The translations under genes and the position numbers were made by a program. From sequence record OR780565.1: a stretch of DNA of 64,000 nucleotides; one strand, 5' to 3'. Of this stretch, positions 53,087-54,663 are shown one piece after another (position 1 is the first letter of the stretch; the number at the start of each line of letters is the position of its first letter). This DNA comes from Escherichia phage DCP2. Below the pieces are notes generated by a model. It had not been told where the DNA came from. It did not search any database and worked only from the letters and a program-made list of their open reading frames with translations.

Positions 53087-53695
53087 ATGGATACTAAATT
53101 AGCTGAAATTTTTGAAGGAAAACATCCAAATTTTAGTACAGGAAAGCTGAAAGACAAAATAATAAAAGAAAATATTTTTCCATATGAGTGTGCAATTTGT
53201 AAAATTTCAAAATGGCAAAATAAGCATATTGTTCTGCAATTAGACCATATTGATGGAAATAACAAAAATCATCTTAAATCAAATTTAAGATTATTATGTC
53301 CAAATTGCCATTCGCAAACTGATACTTTTGCTGGTAAAAATATTAAAAATAATAAAAAGCGTTATAATGTTAGTGATGAAGAAATTTTAAACGCATTATT
53401 AAATTCGGCTACTATATCATCTGCAATTACTTCATTAGGTTTAAGTAAAGGCGGAAACTATAAAAGATTCATTAAAATTGCTAATGATAATAAATTATAT
53501 CATTTACTGGTAAATATTAATGAAAAGATTTTAACTGATGAAATTTACGAAGAATTAGTTAAAATCGATTATTCTAAATTTGGATGGGTTAGTAAAGCTG
53601 CTAAAATAATAGGTATAAGCCCACAAAAAGCTAGAAAATGGATAGAACGAAAATGTCCAGAATTGATAGAACAATCTTTTTCACGTAATAAATAA
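53087..53695 (+). CDS. HNH homing endonuclease immediately upstream of the tRNA cluster
   Basis: HNH motif (LQLDHIDGNNKNHLKSNLRLLCPNCHSQ); first ATG at 53087 (the track start is TTG). Confidence 0.7.
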   Translation: MDTKLAEIFEGKHPNFSTGKLKDKIIKENIFPYECAICKISKWQNKHIVLQLDHIDGNNKNHLKSNLRLLCPNCHSQTDTFAGKNIKNNKKRYNVSDEEILNALLNSATISSAITSLGLSKGGNYKRFIKIANDNKLYHLLVNINEKILTDEIYEELVKIDYSKFGWVSKAAKIIGISPQKARKWIERKCPELIEQSFSRNK

Positions 53696-53701
53696 TATAG
53701 A

Positions 53702-53788
53702 GCGAGAATGGTCAAATTGGTAAAGGCACAGCACTTAAAATGCTGCGGAATGATTTCCTTGTGGGTTCGAGTCCCACTTCTCGCACCA
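53702..53788 (+). tRNA. tRNA-Leu (anticodon TAA), CCA encoded
   Basis: Manual cloverleaf: gcgagaa/ttctcgc acceptor, anticodon loop cttaaaa, long variable arm, ggttcgagtcc T-arm. Confidence 0.8.
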
Positions 53789-53793
53789 AATTT

Positions 53794-53867
53794 GCGGATA
53801 TCGTATAATGGCATTACCTCAGACTTCCAATCTGATGATGTGAGTTCGATTCTCATTATCCGCTCCA
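53794..53867 (+). tRNA. tRNA-Gly (anticodon TCC)
   Basis: Manual cloverleaf: gcggata/tatccgc acceptor, anticodon loop cttccaa, gttcgattc T-arm. Confidence 0.8.
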
Positions 53868-53877
53868 ATTTAATTTA

Positions 53878-53951
53878 CTCCGTGTAGCTCAGTTTGGTAG
53901 AGCGCCTGATTTGGGATCAGGAGGTCCAAGGTTCAAATCCTTGTATGGAGA
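53878..53951 (+). tRNA. tRNA-Pro (anticodon TGG), no encoded CCA
   Basis: Manual cloverleaf: anticodon loop tttggga, ggttcaaatcc T-arm; 2 nt upstream of tRNA-Ser (dimeric precursor arrangement). Confidence 0.75.
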
Positions 53952-53953
53952 CT

Positions 53954-54043
53954 GGAGGCGTGGCAGAGTGGTTTAATGCACCGGTCTTGAAAACCGGCAG
54001 TCGCTCCGGCGACTCATAGGTTCAAATCCTATCGCCTCCGCCA
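53954..54043 (+). tRNA. tRNA-Ser (anticodon TGA), long variable arm
   Basis: Manual cloverleaf: ggaggcg/cgcctcc acceptor, anticodon loop cttgaaa, long variable arm, CCA encoded. Confidence 0.8.
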
Positions 54044-54047
54044 GTTT

Positions 54048-54124
54048 TGCTGATTTAGCTCAGTAGGTAGAGCAACTCACTTGTAATGAGAAGGTCGGCG
54101 GTTCGATTCCGTCAATCAGCACCA
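54048..54124 (+). tRNA. tRNA-Thr (anticodon TGT)
   Basis: Manual cloverleaf: tgctgat/atcagca acceptor, anticodon loop cttgtaa, ggttcgattcc T-arm. Confidence 0.75.
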
Positions 54125-54125
54125 A

Positions 54126-54199
54126 GGCCCTGTAGCTGGAAGGTTCAAGCAAGCGACTCATAATCGCCAGATGGTGGTTCAATTCCACCCAGGGCCACC
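54126..54199 (+). tRNA. tRNA-Ile/Met (anticodon CAT; probably lysidine-modified Ile as in T4)
   Basis: Manual cloverleaf: ggccctg/cagggcc acceptor, anticodon loop ctcataa. Confidence 0.75.
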
Positions 54200-54208
54200 A
54201 AATTAATT

Positions 54209-54296
54209 TGGGGAGTTATCCCGTAGAGGTAGCGGTGTGGACTGTAAATCCATTGTCATTGCGACTCGGGTGGTTCGACTCCACCACTCCCCACCA
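54209..54296 (+). tRNA. tRNA-Tyr (anticodon GTA), long variable arm
   Basis: Manual cloverleaf: ggggagt/actcccc acceptor, anticodon loop ctgtaaa, ggttcgactcc T-arm. Confidence 0.7.
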
Positions 54297-54300
54297 ATTT

Positions 54301-54375
54301 GGATGTGTAGCTCAATGGCAGAGCGATCGCCTGTTAAGCGATTGGTTATAGGTTCGAATCCTATCACGTCCGCCA
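54301..54375 (+). tRNA. tRNA-Asn (anticodon GTT)
   Basis: Manual cloverleaf: anticodon stem atcgc/gcgat with loop ctgttaa, ggttcgaatcc T-arm. Confidence 0.75.
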
Positions 54376-54489
54376 AATTTGTGACAACTGTCACATTAAT
54401 ATCTACTTGACGCGATTATAGGGGTTGAACTGATCACTCTTCTCTTAATTTCGTGTGAAGACATCTTGATTGTTGGAGTAGGTATTAAT

Positions 54490-54565
54490 GTGGCCGTAGT
54501 TCAGTTGGTAGAACTCGAGATTGTGATTCTCGTAGTCATGGGTTCGACTCCCATCGGTCACCCCA
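54490..54565 (+). tRNA. tRNA-His (anticodon GTG) with extra 5' G(-1)
   Basis: Manual cloverleaf: anticodon loop ttgtgat; 8-bp acceptor stem including G-1 opposite discriminator C. Confidence 0.75.
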
Positions 54566-54569
54566 ATTA

Positions 54570-54645
54570 CGGGGCATAGCTCAGAAGGAAGAGCAAGGAC
54601 CTTCTAAGTCCTAGGTCGTAGGTTCGATCCCTACTGCCTCGACCA
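54570..54645 (+). tRNA. tRNA-Arg (anticodon TCT)
   Basis: Manual cloverleaf: anticodon stem aggac/gtcct with loop cttctaa, ggttcgatcc T-arm. Confidence 0.8.
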
Positions 54646-54663
54646 ATTATAAGTGAGGAAAAT

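Follow-up and report, generated by a model that had tools for sequence, protein, structure and literature searches.

A probable homing endonuclease gene in place of tRNA-Gln and a predicted, conserved structured RNA in the tRNA operon of Escherichia phage DCP2

The tRNA locus of the T-even phages is a documented hotspot of endonuclease-driven remodelling, as seen in the homing of SegB (PMC2330249; PMC13096335). Phage T2L carries genes for tRNA-Gln, tRNA-Tyr and tRNA-Asn, the last of which is the preferred SegB site (PMC2330249). The tRNA-Tyr of T6 overcomes Septu and is amplified by SegB (PMC13096335). Other endonucleases are also known: the tRNA region of T5 contains, besides F-TflIV, other HNH enzymes of the F-Tfl series (Akulenko et al. 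2004, as cited in PMC2330249), and the free-standing HNH enzymes of the Mob type, which nick, are a further precedent (PMC2988022). As for small RNAs, the roles of RNAs C and D of T4 are undescribed, and no trans-acting small RNA has been characterised in this phage (PMC3014915; for the roles of C and D, also PMC9697503). Here we describe the tRNA operon of Escherichia phage DCP2 (sequence record OR780565.1), in a stretch of 64,000 nucleotides (nt) which we call the window. This operon contains a gene for an HNH endonuclease and, in the gap between tRNA-Asn and tRNA-His, what appears to be the gene for a structured RNA.

We consider, with a probability of about 0.7, that the locus corresponds to the common form of the standard tRNA operon of Tequatrovirus, to which two points should be added: a homing gene has replaced tRNA-Gln, and the supposed spacer is a gene. 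The common order is Gln, Leu, Gly, Pro, Ser, Thr, Ile2, Tyr, Asn, small RNA, His, Arg, ORF116, rnaD, rnaC and terminator. The window is from a Tequatrovirus. Its 1.9-kb locus is 98-99% identical, over the full length, to those of Shigella phage S2_01, ACG-C40, the slur phages and others. In 42 GenBank records, 80% or more of this locus is covered; at least 42 phages have the same locus, and the tRNA locus as such is matched by more than 1000 records. Most of the features which an earlier note, made from the letters of the window, had singled out are ordinary for Tequatrovirus and already annotated in GenBank. The most valuable result is the unannotated small RNA, supported by covariation, which is predicted within the supposed spacer. 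Coordinates are collected in Table 1.

The HNH gene has physically replaced tRNA-Gln, rather than landing beside the cluster. Homology to T4 covers the region from gene 1 to the first 7-9 nt of tRNA-Gln, trna.2 included, breaks there and is resumed at tRNA-Leu. An intact tRNA-Gln gene starts with TGGGAATTA, and the carriers L028, L030 and L032 retain all nine of these nucleotides exactly. At the other end, only about AG(C) is left of the 3' end of tRNA-Gln in HNH carriers. We have compared seven HNH-positive loci (six fetched ones and the window) with four HNH-negative loci. Every sampled copy of the gene ends 6 nt before tRNA-Leu, with the same junctions. A hairpin rich in GC, GGCTCT-ttcctg-AGAGCC followed by TTTGTT, is found at 53043-53067, just 5' of the tRNA-Gln remnant. 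T4 has this hairpin too; where the tRNA operon begins, it may act as a terminator or as a signal for processing.

The earlier note had already recognized an HNH endonuclease gene upstream of the cluster, and this identification holds: the protein matches the PHROG 14736 family ("HNH endonuclease") from end to end. Its motif may be written as C35-x2-C38 ... D53-H54 ... N66 ... C71-x2-C74-H75, as found in HNH proteins, and residues C35, C38, H54, N66, C71 and C74 are invariant in five relatives. A profile of this five-sequence family aligns the motif weakly to the HNH motif of I-HmuI (E=0.2) and gives weak matches to helix-turn-helix (HTH) domains. The C-terminal half, which has weak HTH matches, is helical in a single-sequence AlphaFold model, with confidence values (pLDDT) of about 80-89. 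The protein probably has a zinc-bound HNH core at its N-terminus, followed by a helical domain in which an HTH is probable. Among characterised proteins, F-TflIV (hegA) of T5 is the closest, with 35% identity over 170 aligned residues which include both domains (E=2e-22). All four relatives that we inspected (in T5, Karamvirus EnA02, jumbo phage SE_PL and Bacillus phage Chewbecca) are found in or against tRNA arrays, on the tRNA strand, which parallels the statistical association with tRNA arrays reported for SegB (PMC13096335). The protein from the window thus has both features of an F-TflIV-like HNH enzyme of tRNA arrays, homology in two domains and residence in a tRNA array: it is a new, uncharacterised member of this group. 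It is not a SegB, no segB match is found in the window locus and the protein matches HNH families only. Comparison of the model with the PDB by Foldseek gave nothing with E below 0.5, and phmmer found no meaningful match of the protein in the same database.

This gene is probably a free-standing homing endonuclease gene which has been spreading recently, to judge from its distribution: the slot is fixed, near-identical copies appear sporadically, the neighbours are varied and the relatives reside in tRNA arrays. The gene is found, with at least 95% identity, in 63 records, while an intact Gln-Leu junction of the T4 type is found in 446. The atypical part of the locus is therefore the HNH gene in place of tRNA-Gln, with a frequency of about 12%. 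A tblastn search (E<=1e-5) found 238 records in all: beyond the near-identical copies, identity falls directly to about 45% or less, with no intermediates. All copies are at least 98.5% identical, and adjacent markers differ by 2-21%. The seven positive loci present two left-hand variants and five right-hand architectures: the window type; Tyr-segB-Arg; Gly-segB-like-Ser, with loss of Pro; Ser-ORF-Ile2-segB, with loss of Thr; and Asn-Arg, without the His cassette. The HNH gene and segB are found together in L028, L030 and L032. Within 100 bp of the gene on either side, the flanks of the HNH-positive loci agree with different haplotypes of loci without the gene, and the only consistent difference is the body of tRNA-Gln. 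In other words, the gene is either present or absent at one fixed site among collinear relatives, as is the case for free-standing homing genes. No co-conversion tracts are visible around the gene in these seven positive and four negative loci. No relatives of the protein were found in IMG/VR, where a search with the trna.2 protein gave only 6 loci.

The gene was inserted in tRNA-Gln, with deletion of nt 10 to about 71, which left 9 nt of the 5' end of the tRNA. Since carriers consistently differ only by the absence of these nucleotides, the target of the enzyme probably overlaps tRNA-Gln. In a mixed infection, the enzyme would nick or cut the intact tRNA-Gln region of a phage without the gene, and recombinational repair would then copy the gene into it. 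Carriers would be immune, their target being gone. Some results speak against this proposal. The Pfam HNH model (PF01844) scores below threshold, 17.3 bits against a gathering score of 21.4. Residues 1-93, which form the nuclease half, have pLDDT below 50 in the AlphaFold model; the HNH assignment is independent of this model. T-even phages recombine freely, and mosaic contexts of the HNH gene could arise without homing. Finally, carriers of SegB need not lack its target sites, so a rule which makes tRNA-Gln the target is not absolute (PMC2330249).

Another explanation is that the gene has ceased to home, as a passenger (fixed or in decay) or after domestication, and owes its distribution to vertical descent in a sub-lineage and recombination of the flanks. 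The high mosaicism of T-even genomes would fit this, as would the invisibility of a long co-conversion tract and the fact that 42 of the approximately 63 carriers have the full architecture of the window. We consider it unlikely: the open reading frame (ORF) is intact in all carriers, with an identity which contrasts with the divergence of adjacent markers, five different local architectures contain it, and both catalytic and zinc residues are preserved. A homing gene is the reading that we prefer. Other insertions which cost a tRNA gene are also found in these operons. A SegB-like gene replaces tRNA-Pro in Shigella phage CM8 (L029, 4022-4630) and an ORF of 160 amino acids replaces tRNA-Thr in pSe_SNUABM_01 (L032, 4205-4687), and some genomes have two endonuclease genes in one operon.

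The gap at 54376-54489 had been described as about 115 bp of non-coding DNA, equivalent to the gap which contains segB in T4. The gap is real and measures 114 bp, but it is not an empty equivalent of segB: to judge from comparative sequence analysis, its 3' 95 nt encode a conserved, strand-specific, covarying RNA. The transcript of the 114-nt gap folds far better than shuffled sequences (z=-4.36). Eleven unique variants give, with RNAalifold, a Y-shaped consensus formed by helices P1, P2 and P3. In this consensus, 96.8% of the paired cells can pair, compared to 40-51% when partners are slid, and 8 pairs present double-sided changes, compared to 1-4 in slid controls. On four of five measures, none of 500 shuffles attains the observed value, a control which overstates significance, as the sequences of the element are related. 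In P1, 16 unique variants give 190 Watson-Crick pairs, 30 G·U, 1 A·C and 3 other combinations, while a slid strand pairs in only 47-49% of cases. With a covariance model (R1), the + strand reaches 108.5 bits, compared to 12.6 (also given as 13-18) for the - strand, and a single copy is found in the window. An RNA with a conserved secondary structure, on the same strand as the operon in which it lies, has two of the features of the small stable RNA class. Two considerations should be set against this interpretation: P2 is poorly conserved, and the element could act only in cis, on processing, without accumulating separately.

The element is not restricted to Tequatrovirus. It is found by blastn in about 355 phage records, with 80-88% identity in other genera, to which about 27 records of the Merlin type should be added. 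The total is about 380 phage genomes, in at least seven genera of Tevenvirinae and in Vequintavirinae. It generally lies between two tRNA genes on the same strand: Asn and His in Tequatrovirus; Gln and His in Karamvirus, Gelderlandvirus, the Klebsiella T4-likes, Winklervirus, Mosugukvirus and Moonvirus; Gly and Gln in two Vequintavirinae (W70 and A7_1); Asn and Arg in one metagenomic contig (L055). The element and tRNA-His form a single presence/absence cassette, and L024 and L033 run directly from Asn to Arg. Diverged copies with scores of 24-40 bits are found in five further genomes; they keep P1, the junction and the P3 loop UC(A/U)UGAU, while P2 varies. Citrobacter phage Merlin (L121) has two diverged copies in one tRNA array, at 495-600 and 1404-1507, and one of them is the exception to the general rule, as it precedes a coding sequence. 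Both copies have the terminal helix and the base of P2 in common, with different interiors. In PG7 (L002) and CF-SP2 (L004) the Gln-His gap is about 214 nt long. The extra 115 nt or so upstream of the element (1389-1500 in both cases) are conserved between Karamvirus and Gelderlandvirus and may be a further non-coding RNA.

The covariance model found no copy in T4, T5, an RB69-like locus or the Bacillus phage, and an unfiltered search of 8 kb of the window and ten other loci detected no paralogue outside Merlin. No copy was found in bacterial genomes from 185,579 species, where all 19 pattern matches were attributed to chance by nhmmer; in the first DNA pattern scan, chance accounted for about 9 of 15 matches. 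No Rfam family appears in the spacer at E<=1, the element is not annotated in the sampled GenBank records, and we have found no description of an RNA at this position in the literature. T4 lacks the element, and T2L, as described in PMC2330249, and T6-like loci lack the His cassette which holds it: this is probably the reason why the RNA has never been seen before. Some candidates were considered and rejected. The spacer is not a diverged rnaC or rnaD, as blastn with a word size of 7 gave only chance matches. Neither is it a tRNA or a tRNA pseudogene, in view of the lack of any ARAGORN call or Rfam match. A core like that of the hammerhead was suggested by CUGAUCA, which lies in a loop and is not conserved in type-B copies. 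A promoter and terminator scan gave no convincing + strand promoter in the gap.

The RNA would be transcribed together with the tRNAs. RNase P, which cuts at +1 of tRNA-His, would set its 3' end, and its 5' end would result from the maturation of the preceding tRNA at the 3' side. Once released, it would remain as a small stable RNA in the manner of RNAs C and D of T4, with the conserved P3 loop as the likeliest interaction surface. A more ambitious proposal, which we only put forward tentatively, is that the element represents a family of non-coding phage RNAs not described so far, which reside in tRNA arrays (those of Tevenvirinae and of some Vequintavirinae), and that it acts in trans, in a role of its own, and is not a mere by-product of processing. 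It could be a decoy or inhibitor directed against host defences which target tRNAs, or a factor which makes a tRNA-His without G(-1) usable. The HisRS of E. coli needs G(-1) on tRNA-His, and this base is not encoded at -1 in these genes. The tRNA-His gene (54489-54565, base -1 included) has a 7-bp acceptor stem (GTGGCCG/CGGTCAC), C73 and an encoded CCA. Base -1 is T, not G, in every copy examined, and is also the last paired base of P1 in the upstream RNA.

The element might instead be a cis-acting part of the tRNA precursor, a folded leader which positions or times the processing of the downstream tRNA, usually tRNA-His. In most variants the element does precede tRNA-His, with which it forms a cassette; P1 ends exactly at -1 of this tRNA, where the gene sequence reads T and not G. 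On the other hand, tRNA-Gln is the downstream gene in W70 and A7_1 and tRNA-Arg in L055, one Merlin copy lies between tRNA-Asn and a coding sequence, and a leader role leaves the conserved P3 loop unexplained. We consider this explanation unlikely.

A feature of the DNA itself is much less probable. According to this explanation, the element would be a recombination scar or a miniature mobile element, with P1 as its terminal inverted repeats. It has complementary ends of 14 bp, it appears in different tRNA contexts in two phage subfamilies, and the two Merlin copies have the same ends around different interiors. The composition of P1 counts against a terminal inverted repeat: the 30 to 1 ratio of G·U to A·C is an asymmetry expected only if the RNA transcribed from the + strand is under selection. 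Furthermore, P3 is internal and covaries, the covariance model is strongly strand-specific, no target-site duplication is found and genomes have a single copy, with Merlin as the only case of two. A selected RNA remains our interpretation of the element.

A perfect inverted repeat, TGTGACA-ac-TGTCACA, had also been pointed out in the gap, and it is found exactly as described. Nevertheless, it is not a notable feature: there are 18 comparable inverted repeats of 7 nt in 2.4 kb, no more than expected by chance. It lies 5' of the conserved RNA core, where it overlaps P1 by its last base only, and is confined to the Tequatrovirus copies; elsewhere the left arm is missing. It is most simply explained as an extra 5' hairpin in the predicted transcript. 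That it could be a cAMP-CRP site, in control of a promoter inside the operon from which the His-Arg-rnaD-rnaC half would be transcribed, seems to us highly improbable. It contains a perfect TGTGA-N6-TCACA core, the only one in 64 kb (0.12 expected), and L055 keeps both arms though the centre differs. At least one match is nevertheless found in 11 of 100 shuffles, no credible + strand -35/-10 pair appears downstream, the left arm is absent outside Tequatrovirus, and the same sequence folds as a simple RNA hairpin.

As regards the tRNA genes, ARAGORN detects exactly ten, on the + strand, with the anticodons and coordinates which had been proposed by manual folding; Tyr, Asn and His are all among them. 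Nine of the ten score 59-74 bits with the Rfam tRNA model (gathering score 29). The remaining one is tRNA-Tyr, which has a long variable arm and only gives a sub-threshold match to the tRNA-Sec clan in the Rfam scan. It is annotated as tRNA-Tyr in near-identical genomes and is 97% identical to the T6 tRNA-Tyr. The CAT tRNA is of the Ile2 type: its best matches in E. coli are annotated as tRNA-Ile, with 81.6% identity. The block from Leu to Thr (53702..54124, +) is 97.5% identical to T4. In the Ile2-Tyr-Asn block (54126..54375, +), homology to T4 ends 12 nt into the CAT tRNA and is resumed at rnaD. The Ile2(CAT) and Tyr genes (54126-54296) are 96-97% identical to those of phages of about 136 kb (MaxBurger, nimi and S127 BCL3), which are apparently Vequintavirinae-like. 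This near-identity and the presence of the RNA element in the Vequintavirinae W70 and A7_1 suggest a recent exchange of tRNA-array cassettes between phage families.

The T4 set had been correctly stated in the earlier note: the T4 annotation gives Gln, Leu, Gly, Pro, Ser, Thr, Ile, segB and Arg. It also gives rnaD and rnaC after Arg, two genes on which the note was silent. Alignment with T4 and its relatives supports the absence of tRNA-Gln, whose slot is occupied by the HNH gene, but not the idea that Tyr, Asn and His are additions particular to this phage. The module Ile2(CAT)-Tyr-Asn-spacer-His-Arg-ORF116 is covered to at least 80% in 248 records, while segB of the T4 type is found, with the same coverage, in 126. 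Most genomes with the module also have an intact tRNA-Gln; for example, L023 has 11 tRNAs and no HNH gene. The tRNA content is typical, an outcome which the earlier note had itself named as one that would refute its proposal, and T4 is the less common form. Remodelling of the locus by an endonuclease is therefore upheld by the alignments as regards tRNA-Gln, with SegB as a precedent, and fails for Tyr, Asn and His, which are not linked to the HNH gene. That this gene caused Tyr, Asn and His to be acquired and segB to be lost, which left an empty palindromic gap, can practically be discarded: the gap does correspond approximately to the position of segB in T6-like loci (between Tyr and Arg), but the Tyr-Asn-RNA-His module is common without the HNH gene, this gene coexists with segB in three loci, and the gap contains the conserved element.

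Table 1. Features of the tRNA operon in the window. Positions are those of the 64,000 nt stretch.
Feature	Position	Strand	Basis or remark
tRNA-Gln 5' remnant, TGGGAATCA	53074..53082	+	Alignment with T4 and HNH-negative loci
HNH endonuclease gene, 202 aa, in tRNA-Gln slot	53087..53695	+	PHROG 14736, E=5e-124
tRNA-Leu-TAA	53702-53788	+	ARAGORN
tRNA-Gly-TCC	53794-53867	+	ARAGORN
tRNA-Pro-TGG	53878-53952	+	ARAGORN
tRNA-Ser-TGA	53954-54043	+	ARAGORN
tRNA-Thr-TGT	54049-54124	+	ARAGORN
tRNA CAT (Ile2)	54126-54200	+	ARAGORN
tRNA-Tyr-GTA	54210-54296	+	ARAGORN
tRNA-Asn-GTT	54301-54375	+	ARAGORN
Perfect inverted repeat TGTGACA-ac-TGTCACA	54380..54395	+	Extra 5' hairpin predicted in transcript
Predicted structured RNA, about 95 nt	54395..54489	+	Fold z, RNAalifold, covariance model, pair counts; ends flush with tRNA-His +1
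P1 of predicted RNA	54395-54408 paired with 54476-54489	+	14-bp helix joining the exact 5' and 3' ends
P2 of predicted RNA			Composite, variable arm
P3 of predicted RNA			4-bp hairpin, 7-nt loop UC(A/U)UGAU
tRNA-His-GTG	54490-54565	+	ARAGORN
tRNA-Arg-TCT	54570-54645	+	ARAGORN; allele different from that of T4
ORF116, 116 aa, between tRNA-Arg and rnaD	54664..55014	+	PHROG 3355 (unknown function), E=8e-53
rnaD homologue	about 55014-55126	+	79% identity to T4, blastn
rnaC homologue	55133-55271	+	99% identity to T4, blastn
Terminator-like GC-rich hairpin and T-run	55322..55345	+	Promoter/terminator scan

The remaining features lie downstream of the tRNA genes or flank the operon. ORF116 is absent from T4 and present in several relatives, and its stop codon abuts the rnaD homologue. 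The very different identities of the rnaC and rnaD homologues to T4 (for rnaD, 84 to 99% in other lineages) suggest that these two RNAs evolve at very different rates. The hairpin which follows them is probably the end of the tRNA and small RNA transcription unit. Three ORFs which flank the operon (51799-52044, 55221-55871 and 55997-56560) start with MK(T/S)Y..F..EA, one of them from an internal methionine. We take this start to be the capsid-targeting sequence of T4 internal head proteins; if this is correct, the tRNA operon is surrounded by a variable cluster of genes for internal proteins which are injected.

Endonuclease remodelling of this locus is already established for SegB. What the window adds is a second lineage of endonucleases, of the HNH type and related to the enzymes of the T5 tRNA region, which appears to colonise the locus at the cost of one tRNA gene. 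The HNH case broadens the view that tRNA clusters are a terrain of selfish nucleases, and phages with and without the gene form a clean natural pair for the study of homing. Phage tRNA arrays are now viewed as counter-defence loci, and the T6 tRNA-Tyr which overcomes Septu (PMC13096335) is 97% identical to that of the window. The predicted RNA, whose structure is well supported, would be a third one beside C and D, in hundreds of therapeutic and BASEL-type phages, where current annotation pipelines miss it. It is absent from T4, and apparently also from T2 and T6, and offers a concrete candidate which can be tested.

A comparison with known systems may summarize the place of both elements. Like SegB, the HNH protein is encoded by a free-standing gene in the same tRNA operon, transcribed with the tRNAs, which some close relatives have and others lack, and which is associated with the loss or replacement of neighbouring tRNA genes. 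It differs from SegB, a GIY-YIG enzyme, in its superfamily and in its position: it occupies the tRNA-Gln slot and overwrites a tRNA gene, while SegB sits between two of them, Ile or Tyr and Arg. Its activity, in addition, is a prediction. With F-TflIV of T5 it shares a homologous HNH core and C-terminal HTH-like region, and a location inside a tRNA array on the same strand. F-TflIV comes from Demerecviridae and has an extra N-terminal extension of about 55 amino acids. The MobA-E enzymes of T4 are also free-standing HNH proteins, from the same virus group, with an HNH core and a distinct C-terminal DNA-binding region, often in cassettes without a promoter (PMC2988022); no similarity to them is detectable by tblastn at E<=1e-5, where the 238 matching records are far fewer than the more than 1000 which match the tRNA locus. 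Finally, the predicted RNA resembles RNAs C and D of T4, which have about 100-140 nt, as a non-tRNA RNA encoded on the same strand of a tRNA operon, and differs from both in its sequence, which has no similarity to theirs by blastn, and in its location between two tRNAs.

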